Counted from the first letter of the stretch, positions 26,299-61,000 are shown. The stretch is DNA of 64,000 nucleotides from Escherichia phage vB_EcoM_3HA14 (MN342151.1); one strand, 5' to 3'. Numbers and translations are program-made. The notes: generated from the letters alone by a model not told the origin.

Positions 26299-27402
26299 TT
26301 ACTCAGCGTCTGAACGAACGTCAACAAGCAGTTGAGGACGTGTGCAGTATGGCAGCATGTAAGAGTGGGCTTCGAAGTCAATACCTTCGTCACGGTCTTT
26401 CTCATATTCGAACACATACAGTTCCTGACCCAGAGTGTTTGCATACCCCATCTTAGGACATGGAGCGTAAGCAACTTCGAAGATGTTGTTAGCTTCACCC
26501 AACATTGCTACGTTAGGGAATGCGTGACCTACACCAATATTAGTGTCAGATACACCATCAATGCTAACCAGAGTATGAGTCTTACCACGCTTGTCTTTGA
26601 ACTTACCGTTGTACTGTACGAATACAACACCACCGTAGTAGAAGCGGTTCATGTGAGCCTGAACACCATCAGTACCACCAGTTCTCAGAGAACCAGTAAT
26701 CTGTTGCCAAGCCAGCGGAGTCTGCTGTGCAAGGTATGCGTCACGAATCTTAGGATGCTTGATAAGCTTGCTGAAGAAAGTTCTGTCAACAACGATGTGA
26801 ATTTCTTCACCGTTGATTACAGTACCTGTCTTAGCTTCATCTTCCATGTGCATACGCAGGTCTTCAATGTGCGCATCGATATCAGAGTTCGGGTTGTCCA
26901 AGTCGAAGTAGATAGTCTTCTTAGTTACATCGAACTGCTTGTACAGGTCTGCGTACAGAACACCGTTAGCGTCGATAACTTTACCCTTCAGGGCTTGCAT
27001 AAACAAGAACTCACGAGTAATATCAAACTTGGTACGAATCTTCATCAGCTTCTTAGCACGTACAACTGCTTCAGTAGTCAGTTCATTTGCAGTGCCTGGC
27101 TGACGAACACCCTGAATCTCATCAGGAGTGATGCTCTCAACTTCCTTGAAGTACATCATCGGGAAGCTAATCTGACGAACACGCTCAGGAGCGCTAGTCT
27201 CAGCTTTACGGCTGGTACGGTCTACCGCATCCAGTAAGCTGATATCCCAATCAGTCAAGTCCATCAGGAAAGTAGTCTGTGTTTGTGGAGCAGAACGGAA
27301 CAGTCCCAGACCAGAGATATATCCGTAAGTATTTGGAATAGACTGGACTTCACCAGTTAAGTCAGCAAGGAAAAATCTGCTTTTTTCAGAATTAGTCAAC
27401 AT
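26299..27402 (-). CDS. major capsid protein (367 aa)
   Basis: Position after protease/scaffold and decoration-like gene; the segment is visibly more GC-rich than its neighbours, consistent with a highly expressed gene. Confidence 0.65.
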   Translation of the reverse strand: MLTNSEKSRFFLADLTGEVQSIPNTYGYISGLGLFRSAPQTQTTFLMDLTDWDISLLDAVDRTSRKAETSAPERVRQISFPMMYFKEVESITPDEIQGVRQPGTANELTTEAVVRAKKLMKIRTKFDITREFLFMQALKGKVIDANGVLYADLYKQFDVTKKTIYFDLDNPNSDIDAHIEDLRMHMEDEAKTGTVINGEEIHIVVDRTFFSKLIKHPKIRDAYLAQQTPLAWQQITGSLRTGGTDGVQAHMNRFYYGGVVFVQYNGKFKDKRGKTHTLVSIDGVSDTNIGVGHAFPNVAMLGEANNIFEVAYAPCPKMGYANTLGQELYVFEYEKDRDEGIDFEAHSYMLPYCTRPQLLVDVRSDAE

Positions 27403-33541: not shown

Positions 33542-33617
33542 TGGAGTATCGGAAGGGACTCGAACCCTCATAAACCTGTTTTGCAGACAGGCACATAACC
33601 ATTTCTGACACCGACAC
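33542..33617 (-). tRNA. tRNA-Cys (GCA)
   Basis: Manual fold: acceptor GTGTCGG/CCGATAC, anticodon arm CCTGT-CTGCAAA-ACAGG, T-arm GAGGG-TTCGAGT-CCCTT, CCA encoded. Confidence 0.75.
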
Positions 33618-33623
33618 ATAATT

Positions 33624-33716
33624 TGGAGGAAGATACCAGACTTGAACTGGTACGCCGATTTCTCGGTTACTGGCAGTTTAGCAAACTGCTCCCTTACCTT
33701 TTAGGGTTAATCTTCC
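33624..33716 (-). tRNA. tRNA-Ser (GCT), long variable arm
   Basis: 93 nt; acceptor GGAAGAT/ATCTTCC perfect; anticodon loop TTGCTAA; long variable arm; T-loop TTCAAGT. Confidence 0.75.
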
Positions 33717-33717
33717 A

Positions 33718-34452
33718 TTATTTGTTCAGAGCTTCTTTCATCTCTGGAGTTGCGATAGTATCAATCACACCAGTTTTACATGAATCATCAAACCAGCTTG
33801 GTAGAACATTCGCAAGGAAACCATTAATATTTGTTTTCAGATATTCTGCAATCAGTGCTGCTTCATCTGCAATCATCTGAGTTACTTCGTTAGCATATGC
33901 AGTAATCTTTGCAATACCCTCATTAATCGCTGTAACGGCCTGTGTAGCGAGTTCAGAGATTGTATCTAGTCCTTGGTCGATTGCATCTTGCAAATCGCTT
34001 AGAACGCCATTTACAGCGTCTATGGAGGTATTAATCAAATCCATCGCTTTATTACCGTACTCGGTAGCTACGCCCATGATACCGCTAAACGGTGTACATC
34101 CAACCTGTTCACCTGCTGCTCCCATAACGTTAGAGTAACCTTTAGCTACTTGCATACGTTGTGAAAACTCATCTACAGACTTTTGTCCATACTCAGTAAG
34201 TGTACTTGTCGTTGAAGTTGTACTTCCAAGGCTTGTTGTGAAGCTTCCTAATAAGGCTGTTGTCAGTCCAGCAGCAACTAAAATCTGTTGTGTAGCTGGG
34301 TCTGTTACAGAACTAATTGAGTTAACTAATGATTGAGAGGCAGCTATAGTACCACCAAGAACTGCTGCACCAGTAATAAGAGGGTTTGAAAAACCATTAC
34401 CAGTTTTAAGGAGATTAAAAATCTCTTTACTTTGTTCTGTCATCTCTTTCAT
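33718..34452 (-). CDS. hypothetical Ala/Thr/Ser-rich protein (244 aa) within tRNA cluster
   Basis: ORF-track start (GTG at 34515) would run through a tRNA-Phe; ATG at 34452 has a GGTG RBS and avoids the tRNA. Confidence 0.5.
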   Translation of the reverse strand: MKEMTEQSKEIFNLLKTGNGFSNPLITGAAVLGGTIAASQSLVNSISSVTDPATQQILVAAGLTTALLGSFTTSLGSTTSTTSTLTEYGQKSVDEFSQRMQVAKGYSNVMGAAGEQVGCTPFSGIMGVATEYGNKAMDLINTSIDAVNGVLSDLQDAIDQGLDTISELATQAVTAINEGIAKITAYANEVTQMIADEAALIAEYLKTNINGFLANVLPSWFDDSCKTGVIDTIATPEMKEALNK

Positions 34453-34468
34453 TATGCACCTATAAAGT

Positions 34469-34545
34469 TGGTAGCCCATCGGGATTTGAACCCTGTTCTC
34501 ATGTTTTTCAGACACGCGCTTTAACCATATAAGCTAATTGAGCTA
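34469..34545 (-). tRNA. tRNA-Phe (GAA), atypical acceptor/D spacing
   Basis: Anticodon arm CGTGT-CTGAAAA-ACATG; D-arm GCTT-ATATGGTTA-AAGC; T-loop TTCAAAT; acceptor pairs only with a 1-2 nt offset and T-stem is weak. Confidence 0.55.
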
Positions 34546-34551
34546 TTAAAT

Positions 34552-34628
34552 TGGGGTGACCTACGGGAATCGAACCCGTATAGACCATGTTCACAGCATG
34601 GGTCATTATCCATTTATGATAAGGCCAC
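34552..34628 (-). tRNA. tRNA-His (GTG)
   Basis: Anticodon arm CCATG-CTGTGAA-CATGG; D-arm TCAT/ATGA; acceptor GTGGCCT/AGGTCAC; CCA encoded. Confidence 0.75.
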
Positions 34629-34659
34629 ATTTAAGGACTCTCGTAAGAATCCTTAGAAG

Positions 34660-34735
34660 TGGCAGCAGTATAAGGATTTGAACCTTAATCTTTCAGCTTC
34701 AGAGGCTGGAGCATTGCCAGTTATGCTATACTGCT
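34660..34735 (-). tRNA. tRNA-Gln (CTG)
   Basis: 76 nt; anticodon loop CTCTGAA; D-arm GCAT/ATGC; acceptor AGCAGTA/TACTGCT perfect. Confidence 0.7.
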
Positions 34736-34741
34736 AATATT

Positions 34742-34820
34742 TGGTACTCCATATCGGATTCGAACCGATACATAACACAGATTTTAAATCTGGCCTCTCT
34801 GCCAATTGGAGTAATGGAGC
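34742..34820 (-). tRNA. tRNA with Leu anticodon (TAA) but short variable arm
   Basis: Anticodon loop TTTAAAA; D-loop AATTGGCAGAG (Leu-like); variable region about 7 nt; discriminator A; T-arm ATCGG-TTCGAAT-CCGAT. Confidence 0.6.
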
Positions 34821-34822
34821 AT

Positions 34823-34898
34823 TGGCGGGGGATGATGGAATTGAACCATCTTCTTCGATTTCAAAGACCGAGGTTTTAACCTTGTAAACTAATCCCCT
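34823..34898 (-). tRNA. tRNA-Gln (TTG)
   Basis: Anticodon arm TCGGT-CTTTGAA-ATCGA; D-arm GTTT/AAAC; position 1:72 mismatched. Confidence 0.65.
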
Positions 34899-35124
34899 AA
34901 CGAACTCTTGAAAGAATATATGCGTTATTGCAAGTATCCTTATTTTCAGGTAGTGATGTTTCGAAGATAACTTGCTTAAGTTCTAATCCAGCAAAGTTAT
35001 AAACAACCTTTCTAACTTCTAACGGGTCACATTGCCAACCAACCGCTATAAAGAAAGTATCTCCAAATCTACCTGTTTCAATCTTGTGGTCATCTTTATG
35101 TTTTTCAACTATGAGTTTATACAT
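34897..35124 (-). CDS. hypothetical protein (75 aa) between tRNA genes
   Basis: ORF fills the gap between two tRNAs. Confidence 0.35.
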   Translation of the reverse strand: MYKLIVEKHKDDHKIETGRFGDTFFIAVGWQCDPLEVRKVVYNFAGLELKQVIFETSLPENKDTCNNAYILSRVR

Positions 35125-35142
35125 AATGTTACCTATTAAATT

Positions 35143-35219
35143 TGGTGCAGAATAGAGGATTCGAACCCCTAACTAACAACTTCGTAGGTTGCTGCTCTGT
35201 CCATTTGAACTAATTCTGC
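35143..35219 (-). tRNA. tRNA-Arg (ACG)
   Basis: Acceptor GCAGAAT/ATTCTGC perfect; anticodon arm GCAAC-CTACGAA-GTTGT. Confidence 0.75.
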
Positions 35220-35381
35220 AATATCCTTTTGAGATTCCTGTCTAGCTCTCTTCTTATCTCTTCTGAGAAAGCGTTTACGATGGTCTGTACGCCATTTGTA
35301 ATAATCTTCTTCACCATCATGCGCTGCACAGCAGCCACAACTTGCAATTTCAACTTTACCATGTCTACCATAAGGCTTCAT
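35169..35381 (-). CDS. hypothetical Cys-rich basic protein (70 aa)
   Basis: ORF whose 3' 51 nt overlap tRNA-Arg; CxC plus basic KRxRR-like segment. May be real or chance. Confidence 0.3.
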   Translation of the reverse strand: MKPYGRHGKVEIASCGCCAAHDGEEDYYKWRTDHRKRFLRRDKKRARQESQKDIAELVQMDRAATYEVVS

Positions 35382-35397
35382 AGGAATCTCCTAAAAT

Positions 35398-35475
35398 TGG
35401 TGTTCCAAGACGGATTCGAACCGTCACTAATACAAGGTTTGAGCTTGCATCCTCTGCCAATTGGGATACTGGAAC
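35398..35475 (-). tRNA. tRNA with Leu anticodon (CAA) but short variable arm
   Basis: Anticodon arm GCAAG-CTCAAAC-CTTGT; D-loop AATTGGCAGAG; variable region about 6 nt; discriminator A. Confidence 0.6.
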
Positions 35476-35476
35476 T

Positions 35477-35551
35477 TGGTACTCGCTGAAGGACTTGAAC
35501 CTTCTTCACCAACTTGTAAGGATGGGGCTTTACCATATAAACTAAGCGAGC
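35477..35551 (-). tRNA. tRNA-Val (TAC)
   Basis: Anticodon loop CTTACAA; T-arm GAAGG-TTCAAGT-CCTTC; separated by 1 nt from the neighbouring tRNA. Confidence 0.7.
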
Positions 35552-35646
35552 TTTGAAGAGGTCTGAAGCTGTGCCGCTAACTCAACTCCGTGGAATTTGT
35601 TACGGTCTTCAGTTGACTCAAGCGGTCTTTCACTTGACCTCAAAAT

Positions 35647-35723
35647 TGGTGCTGCTCACAGGACTCGAACCTGCATCTCCATCCTTACAAGGGATGTGCA
35701 ATAGCCAATTATACGAAAGCAGC
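35647..35723 (-). tRNA. tRNA-Thr (TGT)
   Basis: Anticodon arm CATCC-CTTGTAA-GGATG perfect; T-loop TTCGAGT. Confidence 0.75.
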
Positions 35724-35729
35724 ATTATT

Positions 35730-35804
35730 TGGAGCATCCAGAGGGAATCGAACCCTCAACCTCAGTTTGGAAGACTGTAATTTTCCCATTTAAACTATGG
35801 ATGC
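35730..35804 (-). tRNA. tRNA-Gly (TCC)
   Basis: Acceptor GCATCCA/TGGATGC perfect; anticodon loop CTTCCAA. Confidence 0.75.
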
Positions 35805-35810
35805 ACTAAT

Positions 35811-35886
35811 TGGTGGAGAAGCAGGGAATTGAACCCTGTACTTAAGTTTGCAAAACTTATGTTTTAACCATGTAAACTACATCCCC
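35811..35886 (-). tRNA. tRNA-Ala (TGC)
   Basis: Anticodon arm TAAGT-TTTGCAA-ACTTA perfect; D-arm GTTT/AAAC; G3:U70 wobble (Ala identity element) present. Confidence 0.8.
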
Positions 35887-35892
35887 ATTGTT

Positions 35893-35968
35893 TGGTACAG
35901 GTGGAGGGAATTGAACCCATCGTCTTACTGATTAAGAGTCAGCCGCATAACCATTTTGCTACACCTGC
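35893..35968 (-). tRNA. tRNA-Lys (CTT)
   Basis: Anticodon arm GCTGA-CTCTTAA-TCAGT; T-stem only 3 bp (GGG/CCC). Confidence 0.6.
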
Positions 35969-35975
35969 ATTAATT

Positions 35976-36052
35976 TGGTACACCTAGAGAGATTCGAACT
36001 CACACTGAGCAGATTCTAAGTCTGCTGCCTCTTCCAATTGGGCTATAGGTGC
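35976..36052 (-). tRNA. tRNA with Leu anticodon (TAG) but short variable arm
   Basis: 77 nt; anticodon arm GCAGA-CTTAGAA-TCTGC perfect; D-loop AATTGGAAGAG; 5-nt variable loop; discriminator A. Confidence 0.65.
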
Positions 36053-36305
36053 ATTAAATCTTTGTAGAGAACTGCTAAGACGCCAAAGCAACAATGGTAT
36101 CAAATGCCTTAACAATTCTCTAAAAAGACCTATTGGCCTCTGCATAGTCTTGCTTAATCCGGTGACTAGAACCTTTGGAGAGCTTGATACTATCTCTTCT
36201 CCGTGACACCTACTAGGTGCTTTACCAGTGCCGTGTACGCCAATACACGAAGAGGAAACCTGAAACACTTGCTCGAACAAATAGTCTCAGCTTTAAATCT
36301 TATTA

Positions 36306-36395
36306 GGCGGTAGATAAAGGAGTCGAACCCTCACCGTATCTCTACAATGGCAACTGTTTTCAAGACAGTTTGGCTTCCATTAGCCGCTACCTACC
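36306..36395 (-). tRNA. tRNA-Ser (TGA), long variable arm
   Basis: About 90 nt; anticodon arm ACTGT-CTTGAAA-ACAGT; long variable arm; 3' CC encoded but not the terminal A. Confidence 0.7.
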
Positions 36396-36408
36396 CCTAA
36401 TAAGACTT

Positions 36409-36491
36409 TGGCATGGGACGGAGGATTCGAACCCCTTTGAGTAAGTTTTGGAGGCTTACGCACATGCCTTAGTGTCTTAACATCGTCCCAT
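36409..36491 (-). tRNA. atypical tRNA-like gene, possibly tRNA-Trp (CCA)
   Basis: Perfect 7-bp acceptor ATGGGAC/GTCCCAT and T-arm. Anticodon stem GTAAG/CTTAC encloses a 9-nt loop CCTCCAAAA (CCA anticodon if the closing pair is unpaired); D region about 8 nt longer than canonical. Confidence 0.5.
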
Positions 36492-36656
36492 ACTATATTT
36501 CGAAGCTTACCCTGTTATCTCAACACTGTCAAGCTTCTTCTCAGATTATTTACATGTTCTGGAAAACATGAGATACAGACCACCTCCTTATGAGATTGAC
36601 TCTTTCAAGTCAATGCGGAGACCCATAAAGGTCGTCATAGTAATCTGCTAACTAAT

Positions 36657-36724
36657 TGGCAGTCAAGGTAGGAGTCGAACCTACTTACTATTAAAGGGAG
36701 CTACCCTTCAGCAACTATCCGACT
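36657..36724 (-). tRNA. tRNA-like element (truncated or non-canonical)
   Basis: Canonical T-arm GTAGG-TTCGACT-CCTAC and CCA end, but only about 68 nt to the best acceptor match; no convincing anticodon arm. Confidence 0.35.
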
Positions 36725-36785
36725 TTCGTTTATCTCTTAACGCGTATCCAAGATAACTTACTCGTGTTGTCTTGACCATTAAAAT

Positions 36786-36862
36786 TGGCACACCCTACAG
36801 GATTCGAACCTGTAACTGACGGTTTAGAAGACCGTTGCTCTATCCGTTTGAACTAAGGGTGC
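36786..36862 (-). tRNA. tRNA-Arg (TCT)
   Basis: Anticodon arm ACGGT-CTTCTAA-ACCGT perfect; T-arm ACAGG-TTCGAAT-CCTGT. Confidence 0.75.
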
Positions 36863-37066
36863 ATTATCTTTAAAGGCTCTCTTAGAAAACCCTTAAAGAT
36901 GCCCACTTTATTAATCATACCGTGGGCTAGTACGCCAAATTCTTTAACAGGGAGTTGGAATACCCTGCTGGTGTTTAGCCTATTAAGCTACTGCCAGAAA
37001 AACATTATCGTTTGCATTTATTTTTAAGTTTTTAAAATAGACGCTACGCTAACGAAAACTAAGGTT

Positions 37067-37095
37067 ATCTTAAAGTGGTCACATCTAAATGTCAA
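37067..37095 (-). promoter_or_regulatory. possible internal sigma70-like promoter in tRNA cluster spacer
   Basis: On - strand: TTGACA (37090-37095), 17-nt spacer, TAAGAT (37067-37072). Confidence 0.3.
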
Positions 37096-37109
37096 CAACT
37101 TTATGAAAT

Positions 37110-37187
37110 TGGTTGTAGGTGAGGGTATCGAACCCTCTTCTAACGGTTATCAGCCGTTTGCATTACCATTTATGCTAACCCACAATT
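37110..37187 (-). tRNA. tRNA-Ile (GAT)
   Basis: Anticodon arm AACGG-CTGATAA-CCGTT perfect; D-arm GCAT/ATGC. Confidence 0.75.
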
Positions 37188-37189
37188 GG

Positions 37190-37266
37190 AGGTTCAGGTG
37201 GGAATCGAACCCACATTCATAGGGCTTATGAAACCCTTGCATTACCTTATCTGCGACTGAACCATT
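37190..37266 (-). tRNA. tRNA-Met (CAT), elongator-like
   Basis: Acceptor GGTTCAG/CTGAACC perfect; anticodon arm AGGGT-TTCATAA-GCCCT; 1:72 paired, so not initiator-like. Confidence 0.7.
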
Positions 37267-37344
37267 ATAAGTTGCCCCTTTGTAGAGAACTGATTGAGTG
37301 GGTGTTTCCAGCCGCGCATGTGTTCTTCAGTTAAGGGGCGAATT

Positions 37345-37421
37345 TGGTAGAAGTGGAGGGATTCGAACCCGTCGCCTGTCAGATTAAAAGTCTGCCGCAT
37401 CACCATTCTGCTACACTTCCA
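37345..37421 (-). tRNA. tRNA-Lys (TTT)
   Basis: Anticodon region GCAGA-CTTTTAA-TCTGA; weak T-stem like the CTT isoacceptor. Confidence 0.65.
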
Positions 37422-37606
37422 TTAAATCATCTTTGCAGTAACCTACGCAAACCTTGCTAAAGGGTTTGTAGAGTCATCTCTTATAAGCTAATCTAGAATC
37501 ATGCTCAAGAGACTCTTCGGCACTCATGGGACGACTGGTTAGCTCCATAAGTCACTGCAAAGAGGATTACCAGACCGTATTTATCTTAAGTGCTTCCATT
37601 ACACCA

Positions 37607-37643
37607 ACACGCCGTAACGTGTGAAGGAATCGAACCTTCGCCT
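37607..37643 (-). ncRNA. orphan T-arm-like hairpin with adjacent stem-loop (tRNA-like module without acceptor or anticodon)
   Basis: Sense strand GAAGG-TTCGATT-CCTTC followed by ACACG-TTACGG-CGTGT; no pairing acceptor found within 100 nt. Confidence 0.3.
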
Positions 37644-37844
37644 TTTCTTTACCAGAGAAATAGATTGTTTATTGTTTGCTGTAAACGGTCTTCTGTAAAA
37701 TTGTTGGAACCAGACCAAGTTTTAAATTTTTCAAATTAAATTGGCTTGAAATATTAAAATTGCTTGCTGTATTTGGTCTTCTGCTCCTTTAAAGAATACT
37801 CGTAAGAACTCTTTAAGGGAGGGGCTAAAAAGCCCTCTCAAATT

Positions 37845-37921
37845 TGGCGGTTACGAAGGGATTCGAACCCTCATCATCCTCCGTGACAGGGAGGTATTTT
37901 GACCAGTTAAACTACATAACC
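37845..37921 (-). tRNA. tRNA-Asp (GTC)
   Basis: Anticodon arm CCTCC-CTGTCAC-GGAGG perfect; T-arm GAGGG-TTCGAAT-CCCTT. Confidence 0.75.
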
Positions 37922-37927
37922 TTTATT

Positions 37928-38015
37928 TGGTGCGCCGTGAAGGAGTCGAACCTCCCGAGTCATAATGACAAGTGATTTACAGTCACCACCGCTTCCATCT
38001 ACGGGATAACGACGC
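37928..38015 (-). tRNA. tRNA-Tyr (GTA), long variable arm
   Basis: 88 nt; anticodon arm GGTGA-CTGTAAA-TCACT; variable-arm hairpin TGTCA..TGACT. Confidence 0.7.
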
Positions 38016-38083
38016 ATTTTATTCTATTCAGGCTAAGGACTTGCACCTTACAAATCGGTGAGCAATCGCTTCTCTCCCAAATC

Positions 38084-38161
38084 TTGGCGGTTAGTCAGGG
38101 ATTCGAACCCTGTACCATTCGGTTAACAGCCGACCGCACATGCCTTATGTGCTTCCTAACC
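38084..38161 (-). tRNA. tRNA-Asn (GTT)
   Basis: Anticodon loop CTGTTAA; D-arm GCAC/GTGC; T-arm CAGGG-TTCGAAT-CCCTG. Confidence 0.7.
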
Positions 38162-38245
38162 ATGTTAGTATTACCAGACCGTATCTTTTCATTTTTTGCC
38201 TATAAAAAATTTTAAGTGTTTGCTGTAAACGGCCTTCTGTAAATT

Positions 38246-38322
38246 TGGAGGCGGGTGTAGGAGTCGAACCTACCGATAACATGCTAATGAGACATGTGAG
38301 ACACCCTTTCTCTATACCCGCA
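38246..38322 (-). tRNA. tRNA with CAT anticodon (Met or Ile2), 1:72 mismatch
   Basis: Anticodon arm CATGT-CTCATTA-GCATG; first acceptor pair unpaired (T:C). Confidence 0.6.
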
Positions 38323-38409
38323 ATTCTTAATGACCAGACCAAATCTTTTTTGGATTTCTATGCGCGAAATTGAAAAGTTTGTTTGCTGTAATTGGTCTTC
38401 TGTCAAAAC

Positions 38410-38487
38410 TGGCATTCCCGAAGGGACTTGAACCCTCAAACCACACCTTGAAAGGGTGTTGACTTTACCTAATTTGTCTACGGGAAT
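38410..38487 (-). tRNA. tRNA-Glu (TTC)
   Basis: Acceptor ATTCCCG/CGGGAAT perfect; anticodon arm ACACC-CTTTCAA-GGTGT perfect. Confidence 0.75.
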
Positions 38488-38493
38488 ATAATT

Positions 38494-38573
38494 TGGTCTC
38501 CGTTGAAGGATTTGAACCTTCGACCCCTTGCTCCCAAAGCAAGTGCTGCTAAACCAAACTGAGCTAAACGGAG
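38494..38573 (-). tRNA. tRNA-Pro (TGG)
   Basis: Acceptor CTCCGTT/AACGGAG perfect; anticodon arm CTTGC-TTTGGGA-GCAAG perfect. Confidence 0.75.
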
Positions 38574-38738: not shown

Positions 38739-40154
38739 TTACCAATCGTAGCGTTCAACCATTACTGCTTTGAGCATTACGCTGATAGGGTCAAACTTCT
38801 CACCACCAAGCAAAGCTTTTAAAGTGGCTGGAGAGAAACCAGATACCATTGCTACACCGTTATCCTTTACAGACACTTCGCAAGTACCGTTACGGTTTGC
38901 TAAGTACCAGAATACCAGTTGTGGCATCTCATATCCAGCTTTCTTGTACTTTTCTTGAATTGCTTCAAAGTTAGTACGACCATCTGCTCCATCAACCTGA
39001 TTAAACTGCATATCAGAGAAGATGATAAGCTTACTAGGCATCTCTTTCTGAGTCAAGTTGTTTTTAACACCAATCTCAAGGATTCTTGCAAAAGCAGCTT
39101 GTAGGTCAGTTGAACCATACTCTACATGACTCTTCACTTGACGTAAGCGAGTCTGTAAATCACCACTCAATGTGATGAAGTGAGGTCTGCTAGAGTAAAC
39201 CATCAATTCATCTTTAAAGCAACCTGTATTACGTTCTGAAACGTACAGGGCTAAAGATACACCAATGTCTAGCGCTGTAACAGAACCATGTCGCTCCCAA
39301 GTCATAGATGAAGATACATCTGCCATGCACAGAATGTTCTCACCCTCTTTCATCCAGTTTGGTAAAGCTTTCCACTGCTCATTTGCAACGGTTGCATTAC
39401 CATAACCGACTGACTTTGTAATGTCATAAGGGTAGACTGCACCAGCATTAATCTTTGTCTCACCTTTAGTCAGTGCTGCAATGTATGCTGCATAACGCTC
39501 ACCATCTTTACGACTGAAGAGTTTTTGATAACGTGCAGCAGCCAGTGAAGGAAGCTTGCTGTAATCAATCTCTCCGAACTCATTTGCTGAAATCTTTTGT
39601 TCAACAGTATCAGACAGTGCTGACAGAAGAACTCGATACTGCTTCTCTGAAAGATTTGCAAACTTACAGAAACGACGAACAAAACGCATGTGTCGTGATT
39701 TTACTCGTGGTAACCATTTTGCTGCCAGAGCCGATGTTGCAGGGTCTAACAGTGCAGCTTCTAAATGCTTGAAAGCATCTGTTTCGTAACGTGTACCAAC
39801 AAAGATTTTAAAGTCGTCATAACGACCTAAATCAGAAATCTTGTCCATGATACGTAACACTTGGAACTCATCAAGAATCCCGTCAGAGATTGCTTTAGTA
39901 AGAGTATAACGGAACGCTTTACGCTCACCCATACCTTCTCGTGCATCTCGCATATGTAACAGGATTCGAACTGCTACATCAATATCTTCTCGCATTGCCT
40001 TGTAAAACAAGTTTGGAAGAACTTCTACATTTGTTCTGCTTGAACCAGCAGCTTTGTAGAAATCTACCAGTGCAGACATTGAAGAGGTGTGGTTAACAGC
40101 ACCGTTTTCAGTTAAACCTGCATGTAAATGCGAGTGCTTAAATAATTCGCTCAT
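38739..40154 (-). CDS. vWA-domain protein (471 aa), possibly TROVE/Ro60-like
   Basis: C-terminal half has vWA hallmarks: hydrophobic strand then DVSSSM (MIDAS DxSxS) and LIIFSDMQFN; N-terminal about 270 aa helical. Directly upstream of and co-oriented with the tRNA cluster. Confidence 0.55.
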   Translation of the reverse strand: MSELFKHSHLHAGLTENGAVNHTSSMSALVDFYKAAGSSRTNVEVLPNLFYKAMREDIDVAVRILLHMRDAREGMGERKAFRYTLTKAISDGILDEFQVLRIMDKISDLGRYDDFKIFVGTRYETDAFKHLEAALLDPATSALAAKWLPRVKSRHMRFVRRFCKFANLSEKQYRVLLSALSDTVEQKISANEFGEIDYSKLPSLAAARYQKLFSRKDGERYAAYIAALTKGETKINAGAVYPYDITKSVGYGNATVANEQWKALPNWMKEGENILCMADVSSSMTWERHGSVTALDIGVSLALYVSERNTGCFKDELMVYSSRPHFITLSGDLQTRLRQVKSHVEYGSTDLQAAFARILEIGVKNNLTQKEMPSKLIIFSDMQFNQVDGADGRTNFEAIQEKYKKAGYEMPQLVFWYLANRNGTCEVSVKDNGVAMVSGFSPATLKALLGGEKFDPISVMLKAVMVERYDW

Positions 40155-40230: not shown

Positions 40231-40599
40231 TTATTTTTTCAGAGTTGCTACAGCAGAGAACGTTGGTTTGTTCTCCTGTGCTCCCTGATTCCCATTATCT
40301 GTAGTCTTTTTGTCTACAGCGATGGCTTTCATCTCACCTGCTGAGTGAGTCATGATAACTTTACCAGCTTCCATCATTGATTTGACTTGGATATCTTTTT
40401 GAGTCAAACCAAACTCAGCAAGCTTTACAGGGTCTCTTGTAACAATGGCCTCAAACAGTTTTGCAGCATACTCTGCTGAGTTATCAATAGTCAACTGTGC
40501 CTTGACCAGTGAACTCTTGTTACGTGAGCCTTTGGGTCTACCTGATGGGTTACCAGATTGACCTTTCTTGAATTGGCCTTTGTTTGTTCGTTTCGTCAT
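40231..40599 (-). CDS. basic DNA-binding-like protein with GNPxGRPKG motif (122 aa)
   Basis: N-terminus KKGQSGNPSGRPKGSRNK; GAGGTG RBS upstream. Confidence 0.45.
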   Translation of the reverse strand: MTKRTNKGQFKKGQSGNPSGRPKGSRNKSSLVKAQLTIDNSAEYAAKLFEAIVTRDPVKLAEFGLTQKDIQVKSMMEAGKVIMTHSAGEMKAIAVDKKTTDNGNQGAQENKPTFSAVATLKK

Positions 40600-40989: not shown

Positions 40990-41223
40990 ATGTGTAGCTC
41001 CCAACTAGAAATCACAGATATTATTGATTTATACCAAACTGCAAAGAGTCATGGGTATATCACTTCAATTGGAAAGAATAAGCACTATGATGCACTAACT
41101 GGTATGTATTTCAGAGCAATAGCTCAATCTAGTGAACAGGTTCTAATGGTTTCTTCCAGTGAATTTGCTTCATTTCTCTATTGCAGCAAGATTATCAATC
41201 GTAGGAGAACTGATAAATGTTAA
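40990..41223 (+). CDS. hypothetical protein (77 aa)
   Basis: First ORF of + strand block; AGAGGA RBS. An alternative 55-aa ORF from ATG 40847 (RBS AAAGGAGA) overlaps in another frame. Confidence 0.3.
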   Translation: MCSSQLEITDIIDLYQTAKSHGYITSIGKNKHYDALTGMYFRAIAQSSEQVLMVSSSEFASFLYCSKIINRRRTDKC

Positions 41224-41807
41224 ACGTGAGTTTTAATTATAATGGTGATGGGTCTGTATCAATCACTTCACCATATTCTGATGACCTTCTTAAAGAGTTG
41301 GTTAATCAATGTGAAAGAGGTATGCACTATGTACCTAATTCATTTAAACAGAAAACAATTGCAAATAACTTGATGCGTGTTACTGTTCAGTCCATGAACC
41401 CAGATTATAGCATTGATGGTGAAAGTCCATATTCACTCATGGCTCTAGGTGCTAATAGTGAATTTAAACTGGTATGTCATGATTCAGAAACATTCTTCAA
41501 AGTATTCTCAAATCTTATCCACAATGCTAAATACAGTTATGTGGCTGGTTCAACATCGTTCTCTCCAGCAAACTACACATGTGTTGTGATTGATAACCTC
41601 AGAGAGTCTGAAGAGGCATCCACAGAGATTTCTTTCGATGTGAACACCTCTCCAGAGTCCACTCCAAGTAATGACTTTGACATGAACTATGCGTTATCTC
41701 TGAGTAAGAAATCTGATTTCATTGAATACGTCAATGGATTTGGATTTAAGTTGGATGAGACAATGAATCTCAAAAAACTTAAAAACATGCTTAAGACTAT
41801 GGCTTAA
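41217..41807 (+). CDS. hypothetical protein (196 aa)
   Basis: ORF followed by a clear terminator. Confidence 0.45.
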   Translation: MLNVSFNYNGDGSVSITSPYSDDLLKELVNQCERGMHYVPNSFKQKTIANNLMRVTVQSMNPDYSIDGESPYSLMALGANSEFKLVCHDSETFFKVFSNLIHNAKYSYVAGSTSFSPANYTCVVIDNLRESEEASTEISFDVNTSPESTPSNDFDMNYALSLSKKSDFIEYVNGFGFKLDETMNLKKLKNMLKTMA

Positions 41808-41814
41808 GTTTTAT

Positions 41815-41836
41815 GGGGCGAAAGCCCCTTTTATTT
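41815..41836 (+). terminator. rho-independent terminator
   Basis: GGGGC-GAAA-GCCCC followed by TTTTATTT. Confidence 0.6.
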
Positions 41837-41850
41837 GTTAAGGATAGATA

Positions 41851-42219
41851 ATGAAGGCAAAGAGTGGAAAAGACTTTTATTGCTTCCTACAATCTTATGT
41901 CCAAAGTGTTCAAGAAGGTGACAGGTATAATCTTGATGATGTACTTCCGACACCCTTAACATGGCGTGATAGCAAATGGCCTGAGAAGGATATCAACCCT
42001 ACCGAAACATATTCCGAATACACACCTAAAATTCCTCTACCAGATACTGAAGAACTTCTTTACCCAATGTTTCATATCGTTGGTCTTGGTACATTTTTGA
42101 TGGATATTCAATATGTGATGGGTAAAGGCTATAAGATTGACGGAGTTGTTGTAGGTGATGTTTCACCGCAGCACAAAGGTTATTTTAGACTAAATGCAAG
42201 ATTAGAGGCTAAGAAATGA
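41851..42219 (+). CDS. hypothetical protein (122 aa), paralog of the N-domain of the next gene
   Basis: Shares order and motifs with residues 1-125 of the downstream protein (KxYxDFKEFV, LPxxYxxxWPExDI, YTP, EELLY, FMDLQY). Confidence 0.5.
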   Translation: MKAKSGKDFYCFLQSYVQSVQEGDRYNLDDVLPTPLTWRDSKWPEKDINPTETYSEYTPKIPLPDTEELLYPMFHIVGLGTFLMDIQYVMGKGYKIDGVVVGDVSPQHKGYFRLNARLEAKK

Positions 42220-43100
42220 TTAAAGCAAAGACATATCCAGATTTTAAAGAGTTCGTTAAGGATTTTGTAGCGAATGTTAAAGCTGGCAAAAGATACGACT
42301 TCAGAAAGTATCAGGAGGCTGTTCTGCCTCTGACATATAGCTCACCGTGGCCTGAGTCTGATATTCCAGAAGTTACTGACTTCAATTACACGCCAGACTA
42401 CACAGTTCCATTTAGTGAAGAACTCTTATATTCAGTTGGTGCTCAGATGAGGACTGCTGACTTCTTCATGGACTTGCAGTATGCAATCATCAATGGGAAA
42501 GATGTTGATACAGTTTATTGTGAATGGTTGGCAAGGGTTAAACCTTTCTCCATGCTTAATGCAAAGTTGAAGGATGCAATCACACCTCCAGTTATTACAC
42601 AGCAGCCAACTGACCAAACTGTTAACGAGGGTGGAACACTTACACTTTCAGTTGTTGCTACTGGTGCAACTGGTTATCAGTGGAAGAAAGGTGCATCAAA
42701 CATCTCTGGAGCAACCTCTGCAACATATACTAAGAATGGCGTAGTCCCTACTGATGCTGGCGCATACACCTGTGTAGTTTCTGGTGAAGGTGGCTCAAGT
42801 GTTAATTCCAACGCTGCCACAGTAACTGTGAATGCACTGCCTGTGATTACACAGCAACCTACTAACCAAGAGATTACAGAGGGAGATACACTCACCCTTA
42901 GCATCGTAGCCACTGGTGCAACTGGTTATCAGTGGAAGAAAGATGATGTAGATATCCCTTCAGCAACATCTGCAACATATGAAAAGACACCGACTTCTAA
43001 AGCTGATGATGAAGGTACTTACTCTTGTGTTGTAACTGGTGTAGGTGGCTCAATCACATCCCAATCTGCCAAGGTGGTTATTAACGCAGTAGGAGGTTGA
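42216..43100 (+). CDS. protein with two tandem Ig-like domains (294 aa)
   Basis: C-terminal half is two about 82-aa repeats (PVITQQPT.Q...TLTLS.VATGATGYQWKK...SATSATY...Y.CVV.G.GGS) with alternating beta-strand pattern; N-domain paralogous to the upstream gene. Confidence 0.6.
   Translation: MIKAKTYPDFKEFVKDFVANVKAGKRYDFRKYQEAVLPLTYSSPWPESDIPEVTDFNYTPDYTVPFSEELLYSVGAQMRTADFFMDLQYAIINGKDVDTVYCEWLARVKPFSMLNAKLKDAITPPVITQQPTDQTVNEGGTLTLSVVATGATGYQWKKGASNISGATSATYTKNGVVPTDAGAYTCVVSGEGGSSVNSNAATVTVNALPVITQQPTNQEITEGDTLTLSIVATGATGYQWKKDDVDIPSATSATYEKTPTSKADDEGTYSCVVTGVGGSITSQSAKVVINAVGG
42583..43080 (+). repeat. tandem direct duplication (about 2 x 246 bp) encoding the two Ig-like domains
   Basis: Nucleotide-level repeat with an identical core ACTGGTGCAACTGGTTATCAGTGGAAGAAAG in both copies. 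Confidence 0.7.
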
Positions 43101-43567
43101 TAATGCAACTCTCAAGTAAAGGCTTAGAAGCCATTAAGTTCTTTGAAGGGCTTCGCTTAGAAGCTTATAAAGACTCTGCTGGAATCCCCACAATCGGCTA
43201 TGGAACAATCCGTATCAACGGAAGACCTGTTACGATGGGTATGAAAATTACTGCCGAGCAAGCTGAACAATATCTCCTTGCAGATGTTGAGAACTATGTA
43301 GGTGCAGTAAACAAAGCAATCAAGGTTCCAACTACTCAGAATGAGTTTGATGCACTTGTTGTAGAGACTTACAACATTGGTATCGATGCTATGCAGGATT
43401 CAACTTTTATCAAGCGTCACAATGCTGGTAATAAAGCTGGGTGTGCAGAAGCTATGCAGTGGTGGAACAAGATTACAGTGAATGGTCAAAAAGTAACTTC
43501 CAAGGGTCTACAAAATAGACGTAGTTTGGAAGCCAAGATTTACCTTGACGCTGTTTATCCAAAATAG
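43097..43567 (+). CDS. endolysin, T4-lysozyme-like (glycoside hydrolase family 24)
   Basis: N-terminal catalytic region EGLRLEAYKDSAGIPTIGYGT matches the T4 lysozyme pattern (catalytic Glu, Asp, Thr spacing). Confidence 0.85.
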   Translation: MIMQLSSKGLEAIKFFEGLRLEAYKDSAGIPTIGYGTIRINGRPVTMGMKITAEQAEQYLLADVENYVGAVNKAIKVPTTQNEFDALVVETYNIGIDAMQDSTFIKRHNAGNKAGCAEAMQWWNKITVNGQKVTSKGLQNRRSLEAKIYLDAVYPK

Positions 43568-43575
43568 TAGATTAA

Positions 43576-43600
43576 GAGGCTCCTTCGGGAGCCTTTTTTA
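43576..43600 (+). terminator. rho-independent terminator after endolysin
   Basis: AGGCTCC-TTCG-GGAGCCT followed by TTTTTTATTTC. Confidence 0.6.
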
Positions 43601-60964: not shown

Positions 60965-60990
60965 ATGAAAAAGGCTCCCGAAGGAGCCTC
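60965..60990 (-). terminator. rho-independent terminator
   Basis: On - strand: GAGGCTCC-TTCG-GGAGCC followed by TTTTTCATTT. Confidence 0.55.
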
Positions 60991-61000
60991 TATAATAACT

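Follow-up and report, generated by a model that had tools for sequence, protein, structure and literature searches.

An Ig-less paralog of a Hoc-like capsid decoration protein encoded beside the endolysin gene of a Mooglevirus phage

The 64,000-nucleotide stretch of Escherichia phage vB_EcoM_3HA14 (MN342151.1) that was analyzed as a whole, hereafter the window, carries at 41851-43100 two adjacent genes upstream of the endolysin gene. They encode a 122-aa protein (open reading frame (ORF) 41851..42219, + strand; phrog_4463) and a 294-aa protein (ORF 42216..43100, + strand; phrog_3995). We find that the longer product is the Hoc-like decoration protein (Hex-Dec, also known as gp20) that occupies capsid hexamer centers in FelixO1-type phages, and that the shorter product is a paralog of its N-terminal domain for capsid binding (CapBD) which lacks the immunoglobulin (Ig)-like domains of the longer one. 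The long gene is already published and its structure solved, and the same sequence, gp94 of Shigella phage KPS64, has been discussed in print. The Ig-less paralog is undescribed in the two structural papers and in a targeted literature search, and constitutes the residual novelty of the locus. The region belongs to Mooglevirus (Ounavirinae, FelixO1-like myophages), with 98.7% identity to KPS64 by megablast, a search that returned 228 related records from phages of Escherichia, Salmonella, Shigella, and Citrobacter.

The long protein and its Ig-like array

The 294-aa protein matches KPS64 gp94 with 100% identity, and its residues 1-120 are 100% identical at the amino-acid level to residues 1-120 of Sf14 gp20, whose CapBD structure is solved; it is therefore the known Hex-Dec. 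In the KPS64 record, gp94 is named “putative capsid decoration protein”, while gp93, the equivalent of the short protein, is “hypothetical”. A phmmer search of the PDB returns the Bas63 capsid chain 9ncf_S (“Immunoglobulin-like domain protein”, 460 aa; E=1e-258) and the Sf14 capsid chain 9c2d_S / 9c3a (372 aa; E=5e-185). Similarly, the AlphaFold2 (AF2) model of the whole protein reaches pLDDT 87, and its CapBD superimposes on 9c2d_S with a TM-score of 0.92 and a root-mean-square deviation of 1.9 Å. The original prediction had proposed modeling of the domain shared by the two proteins, and this domain is now recognized as the capsid-binding domain in both, closely matched in the long protein and more loosely in the short one (see below).

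[quoted passage not shown] Its capsid-binding domain comprises the N-terminal 118 residues (PDB: 9C2D, 9C3A), with Arg79 and Arg107 forming salt bridges to Asp221 of three major capsid protein (MCP) subunits, and the displaced position of Asp221 in the true three-fold hexamers keeps gp20 off them (PMC11821841). The window encodes all of these residues: R79 and R107 lie in the CapBD (aa 1-120; 42216..42575, + strand), and D221 lies in the MCP, the binding partner of Hex-Dec, whose gene (26299..27402, - strand) was located by tblastn with a FelixO1 MCP peptide (94% identity). Every testable feature of Hex-Dec/gp20 is found in the 294-aa protein, namely CapBD homology, R79/R107 together with MCP Asp221, and a C-terminal Ig array. 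The structure and location of Hex-Dec have been shown for orthologs, including that of Sf14 with its identical CapBD.

The Hex-Dec and MCP genes are separated by 14.8 kb. The placement beside the lysis gene and outside the structural module, which the original prediction had singled out as unusual, is thus real, and it has already been published as a Hex-Dec gene lying >10 kb outside the structural module (PMC12609058). FelixO1 gp36, the Hex-Dec ortholog beside the lysin gp35, was detected in the virion proteome by MS in 2010 (PMC3185647). The ortholog of Bas63, for which the name Hex-Dec was introduced, has been solved by cryo-EM (PDB: 9NCF), and its CapBD is pseudo-C2 symmetric, larger than that of Hoc, and topologically distinct from it (PMC12609058). 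This pseudo-symmetry is visible in structure only, as hhalign of the two alignment halves finds no trace of the internal duplication at the sequence level (probability 0.2%).

Downstream of the CapBD, the long protein contains two Ig-like units, at aa 125-208 (42588..42839, + strand) and aa 209-292 (42840..43091, + strand). The Pfam families Ig_3 (E=1.5e-19), Ig_2, and I-set all match at two places, and the AF2 model displays two beta-sandwich domains at pLDDT ~95 whose Foldseek matches are tandem Ig modules (Robo, MuSK). The two tandem Ig-like domains proposed earlier are therefore present, with units of 84 aa instead of the suggested ~82 aa. The two units share 61-66% amino-acid identity, depending on the alignment, and 69% nucleotide identity, at a dS of ~0.8. 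The nucleotide-level tandem duplication is likewise recovered, as direct repeats of 153 nt (42583-42735 and 42835-42987; 75% identity, spacing 252 nt) and 47 nt (42752-42798 and 43007-43053; 77% identity, spacing 255 nt), and by blastn (71.5% over 214 nt, E=2e-24). Tandem Repeats Finder at a score >=30 does not report it, because the repeat is too diverged and contains an indel. Judged by its sequence divergence, the duplication is real but old.

Comparison with related phages, as had been suggested for the repeat copy number, reveals a range of 1-4 units: one in SP116 (210 aa), two in the window phage, FelixO1, SUSP1, and mio, three in Sf14 and P0053, and four in Bas63. The range of one to four Ig units is also that published for felixounaviruses (PMC12609058), and KPS64 gp94 is named as a two-Ig variant in the Sf14 paper (PMC11821841). 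The window and Sf14 proteins are identical in the CapBD and only 61% identical in the Ig region (42576-43100), where synonymous differences are saturated; GC content is 0.44-0.46 in the Ig segment and averages 0.39 over the window. The gene is mosaic in this sense, which suggests that recombination has exchanged sequence at the junction between CapBD and Ig region. The Z31 annotation splits the Hex-Dec position into two short coding sequences (405 and 168 nt; L002:2998-3570), and in P0054 the Ig similarity is lost part-way through the first Ig unit. Together, these two cases suggest that Hex-Dec has been naturally truncated to forms with the CapBD only or little more.

The overall design resembles that of T4 Hoc, a dispensable monomer with a string of Ig-like domains, where binding to hexamer centers is, for the window protein, taken from the structures of Hex-Dec orthologs. 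Hoc has been proposed to act in adhesion to mucus or bacterial surfaces and in particle aggregation. The surface-adhesion role suggested for the Ig domains in the original prediction coincides with the role proposed in published work, where it is inferred by analogy. However, the domain order is reversed, with the capsid-binding domain C-terminal in Hoc and N-terminal in Hex-Dec, and sequence similarity to Hoc is confined to the Ig part (PHROG Hoc-like matches cover residues 119-288). T5 pb10 differs in having a single Ig domain; its matches 5lxk and 8zvi cover only Ig residues 131-207, with 5lxk confined to 133-207, and neither the PDB sequence search nor Foldseek on both models returned a pb10-type N-domain for either window protein. 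The 294-aa protein therefore works like T4 Hoc and T5 pb10 and belongs to neither family. Relative to the solved Hex-Dec proteins, it shares the CapBD, the contact arginines, the position beside the endolysin, and the CapBD-plus-Ig architecture, and differs in having two Ig units versus three (Sf14) or four (Bas63).

More distant CapBD homologs are found in gp38 of the Kolesnikvirus phiEa21-4 (L007:2336-2950) and in the metagenomic proteins P0057-P0061. In these, the C-terminal part is instead a Big_2-type Ig domain, a single Ig domain, or a Lys-rich low-complexity tail (P0059). As in the window, the CapBD gene of phiEa21-4 lies between a 196-aa-type gene and the endolysin gene; in contrast to the window, no short paralog adjoins it, phiEa21-4 being the only one of these loci that was examined. 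From these sequence comparisons, the CapBD anchor looks like a scaffold that can be reused for display.

The Ig-less paralog

The short protein corresponds to KPS64 gp93, Sf14 gp21 (FDI99_gp021), FelixO1 ORF37, VpaE1 ORF40, and SUSP1 agp126. The proposed paralogy of the two proteins holds on alignment: BLASTP aligns them at 37% identity across 123 columns (E=6e-17), covering residues 2-119 of the long protein, and the Smith-Waterman score is 156, where 1000 shuffled versions of the short protein score 28.7 +/- 5.5 (z=23). In addition, phrog_4463 and phrog_3995 cross-match (E=2e-14 and 4e-16), and phmmer relates the 122-aa protein to the solved CapBD 9c2d_S (E=1.7e-12). At the nucleotide level, the two N-domains are only 51% identical. 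Self-blast of the window reveals no further copies of either domain.

Structural analysis points in the same direction. The AF2 model of the 122-aa protein (pLDDT 70, pTM 0.68) has 9c2d_S and 9ncf_S as its sole significant PDB neighbors in Foldseek, at a TM-score of 0.58, and matches only Ounavirinae proteins in BFVD. The order of secondary-structure elements (helix / helix / two-strand) is that of the long CapBD. The short protein is thus predicted to keep the CapBD fold.

Comparison of the two families reveals what is retained and what has changed. Common to both are core F, L, Y, P, and G residues and the motifs WPE.DI, LLY, F.MD.QY, and LNA.L. R79, in contrast, is invariant in the long family and is replaced by an equally invariant Gly (G78) in the short family, and R107 of the long protein is Gln (Q107) in the short protein of the window and Gln or His across its family. 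Both published capsid contacts are consequently gone from the short protein. K11, D82, and K119 of the long family are also replaced. Net charge and pI do not discriminate between short and long CapBDs. The short protein ends at residue 122, without Ig-like display domains and with no Pfam domain. Set against Hex-Dec/gp20, it therefore retains the homology and fold of the CapBD (at 37% identity) and has neither R79/R107 nor the Ig domains.

Of the 252 phage records with a Hex-Dec gene, 232 also have the short gene (73-100% identity), and its members span Mooglevirus, Suspvirus, and Felixounavirus. The family contains long invariant blocks, among them the strongly conserved, short-specific LLYPMFHIVGLGTFLMDIQYV, and comparison with FelixO1 gives a dN/dS of 0.14 at a dS above 1. 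By this measure, purifying selection acts on the short gene. The gene order is the same (195 aa, 122 aa, 298 aa, lysozyme) in a divergent metagenomic phage of 87 kb, although its short copy is only 48% identical. In the Kolesnikvirus phiEa21-4, the corresponding position holds a CapBD-Big_2 protein alone, so that the CapBD duplication would post-date the Kolesnikvirus split. An exhaustive profile hidden Markov model (HMM) search of 1.84 billion representatives found 12 proteins; the CapBD domain family is therefore very small, and the search offered no bacterial or other viral context from which a function could be borrowed. Pfam, NCBIfam, and PADLOC gave no matches for the short protein or its upstream neighbors, and an anti-defense or enzymatic reading is consequently unsupported.

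The roughly 20 records without the short gene are informative as well. The three that were checked (mio, SP116, and Z31) contain a near-identical remnant of ~191 nt (mio L003:2807-2997; SP116 L008:2306-2497; Z31 L002:2806-2997), which keeps the terminator hairpin, the first 42 nt, and the last 67 nt including the Hex-Dec ribosome-binding site. About 256 nt are lost internally, apparently along with the start codon (seen in mio). Because the remnants are near-identical, this looks like one ~256-nt deletion inherited in a Felixounavirus clade. The Hex-Dec CapBD is unchanged in the phages that deleted the short gene.

The virion apparently does not contain the short protein. ORF37 is missing from the proteins identified by MS in FelixO1 virions, a list that does include the 9.7-kDa gp23 (PMC3185647), and since the main text of the VpaE1 study adds only gp54, gp58, and gp68 to the FelixO1 virion list, ORF40 would not have been detected there either. 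The wV8 proteome paper covers essentially the tail fiber only. In the cryo-EM studies of Sf14 and Bas63, no density is reported at other hexamers (PMC11821841, PMC12609058), and the asymmetric map of Sf14 reveals protrusions at quasi-three-fold hexamers only (PMC11821841). Neither paper mentions the short paralog or uses the word “paralog” (PMC11821841, PMC12609058), and the Sf14 text and supplements make no reference to that phage's own gp21 (PMC11821841). In SUSP1, agp126 is “Not Fit” in a CRISPRi-ART knock-down, as are Hex-Dec and the endolysin (PMC11879866). We therefore regard the short paralog as conserved but dispensable, in our reading under laboratory conditions.

Possible roles of the short protein

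The gene arrangement bears on function. The stop codon of the short gene and the start codon of Hex-Dec overlap as ATGA, with GAGG upstream of the Hex-Dec start, and the endolysin gene starts within a few bases of the Hex-Dec stop (43097/43103..43567, + strand; ATG 43103 is the start annotated in KPS64). The endolysin, the third gene of the unit, is a GH24 enzyme that matches Pfam Phage_lysozyme at E=5e-39. The three genes are bracketed by terminator-like hairpins. The first, at 41815..41828 (+ strand), is a GC hairpin with a T-run (GGGGCGAAAGCCCC TTTTATTTG) lying between the upstream 196-aa gene, which it closes, and the short paralog; the second, at 43574..43597 (+ strand), has a 10-bp stem and a T-run and closes the unit. 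The overlap, the close endolysin start, and the bracketing hairpins together suggest that short paralog, Hex-Dec, and endolysin form one co-translated unit.

Taken as a whole, we hold with good confidence a reading that combines the Hex-Dec identity of the long protein, a short protein that serves as an accessory built from a duplicated CapBD, and a three-gene late unit in a FelixO1-like Mooglevirus. In this model, the N-terminal 120-residue helical/beta domain of Hex-Dec would sit as a monomer at the center of the 60 pentamer-proximal hexamers in the T=9 head, where R79 and R107 would anchor it through salt bridges to MCP Asp221, while its two flexible Ig-like domains would point outward as in T4 Hoc and, by analogy, probably mediate weak adhesion or aggregation. 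The short protein would have arisen by duplication of the CapBD alone after the Kolesnikvirus split, keeping the fold and hydrophobic core while charged surface residues, including both capsid-contacting arginines, were replaced, and the ATGA stop/start overlap would couple its expression to that of Hex-Dec. As to what it does, we tentatively propose an accessory factor of head decoration that forms no stable, stoichiometric part of the virion, a proposal we consider somewhat short of even odds. Such a factor may bind hexamer centers or the Hex-Dec CapBD weakly or transiently during head maturation, for example to tune or time Hex-Dec loading.

Several observations weigh against this model. 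A transient or regulatory role is backed positively only by gene linkage and fold retention, and the AF2 model of the short protein is of only moderate confidence. The virion MS data are old (FelixO1, 2010) or, for VpaE1, readable only indirectly; moreover, a 14-kDa protein at <=20 copies could escape MS, and a monomer on the true three-fold axis would be smeared by icosahedral averaging. Since the endolysin and Hex-Dec are themselves “Not Fit”, the SUSP1 screen has false negatives and says little. Finally, the adhesion role of the Ig domains is inferred only, for any member of the Ounavirinae.

An alternative that takes up the same detection limits casts the short paralog as a second decoration protein that caps the 20 hexamers on the true three-fold axes; each paralog would then serve one of the two hexamer classes of the T=9 lattice. 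Hex-Dec is excluded from exactly these hexamers by the shifted Asp221, and the residues that contact Asp221 are precisely those changed in the short family, as a change in site specificity would need; R79 to Gly and R107 to Gln could then be a specificity switch fitting the shifted geometry. The retained CapBD fold, purifying selection, and co-translation with Hex-Dec would also fit, and 20 copies of a small protein on an averaged axis would be easily lost in both shotgun MS and icosahedral maps. However, the absence from the FelixO1 virion proteome (and, indirectly, from that of VpaE1), the lack of reported density at the remaining hexamers in both cryo-EM papers together with the quasi-three-fold protrusions of the asymmetric Sf14 map, and the loss of the gene from a Felixounavirus clade with no compensating change in the Hex-Dec CapBD all speak against it. 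We consider such a cap improbable, and the specificity switch it entails equally so. A CapBD scaffold neofunctionalized to bind a non-capsid partner such as a host or phage protein, unrelated to head decoration, would explain why the short family has exchanged the charged residues K11, R79, D82, and K119, which do not vary in the long family, yet retains the core, why the protein goes undetected in virions, and why a short-specific block such as LLYPMFHIVGLGTFLMDIQYV is so strongly conserved. Yet no similarity to other families (Pfam, NCBIfam, PADLOC) and no other fold (PDB, BFVD) was found, and a role related to that of Hex-Dec is favored by their tight and conserved translational coupling. 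This alternative is, in our view, unlikely, though it deserves serious consideration.

We give very little credence to the short ORF being a functionless, decaying relic of the duplication. Its deletion in one clade and the “Not Fit” score in SUSP1 would agree with decay, but the gene is intact in 232 of 252 records, keeps long invariant blocks and a low dN/dS at a dS above 1, and persists at 48% identity in a divergent lineage with identical gene order; on the selection analysis, decay is essentially refuted. For the long protein, a role as tail protein or tail fiber carries next to no weight. This name stands in most GenBank records (“tail protein” or “tail fiber protein”) and in phrog_3995 (“tail protein”), but cryo-EM places the orthologous, 100% identical domain on capsid hexamers, which rules the tail out, and the Bas63 paper calls the name an annotation error (PMC12609058). 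Correcting this widespread annotation of both genes is the practical gain of the present analysis.

Apart from the annotation, it is the Ig-less paralog alone that goes beyond published work, and to a modest degree. It represents a capsid anchor duplicated as a stand-alone gene and selected in at least three Ounavirinae genera and in a divergent metagenomic lineage. Should the short protein bind hexamers, it would serve as a naturally occurring reference without Ig domains for probing what the Ig fiber does, and might also add a second anchor module for phage display on T=9 heads. For comparison, the clade in which the gene was naturally deleted (mio, SP116, Z31) already supplies suitable strains.

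Neighboring genes and further repeats

Upstream of the short paralog lie genes for a 77-aa protein (phrog_5064; 40990-41223, + strand) and a 196-aa protein (phrog_4034; 41217-41807, + strand). Their order is kept in most Ounavirinae loci examined, and no family or function is detectable for either; in Kolesnikvirus, too, the CapBD gene follows one of the 196-aa type. The hairpin after the endolysin gene (43571-43598) recurs in inverted orientation at 60968-60996, 17 kb downstream, with 96.6% identity over 29 nt, and this recurring 29-nt element, recovered by self-blast of the window, probably explains the “second place” in the megablast matches.

An array of 26 tRNA genes (33542-38573, - strand) is divergent from the decoration/lysis unit and sits between it and the structural and packaging genes. 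Adjoining the array is a gene for a 471-aa vWA / DUF2828 protein (38739-40154, - strand), named “RNA-binding protein” in PHROGs and RefSeq (phrog_850). A gene at 40231-40599 (- strand) encodes a 122-aa DUF5681 protein (phrog_4114), whose SUSP1 homolog, AVU07_agp130, is among the few genes scored “Fit” by CRISPRi-ART (PMC11879866).

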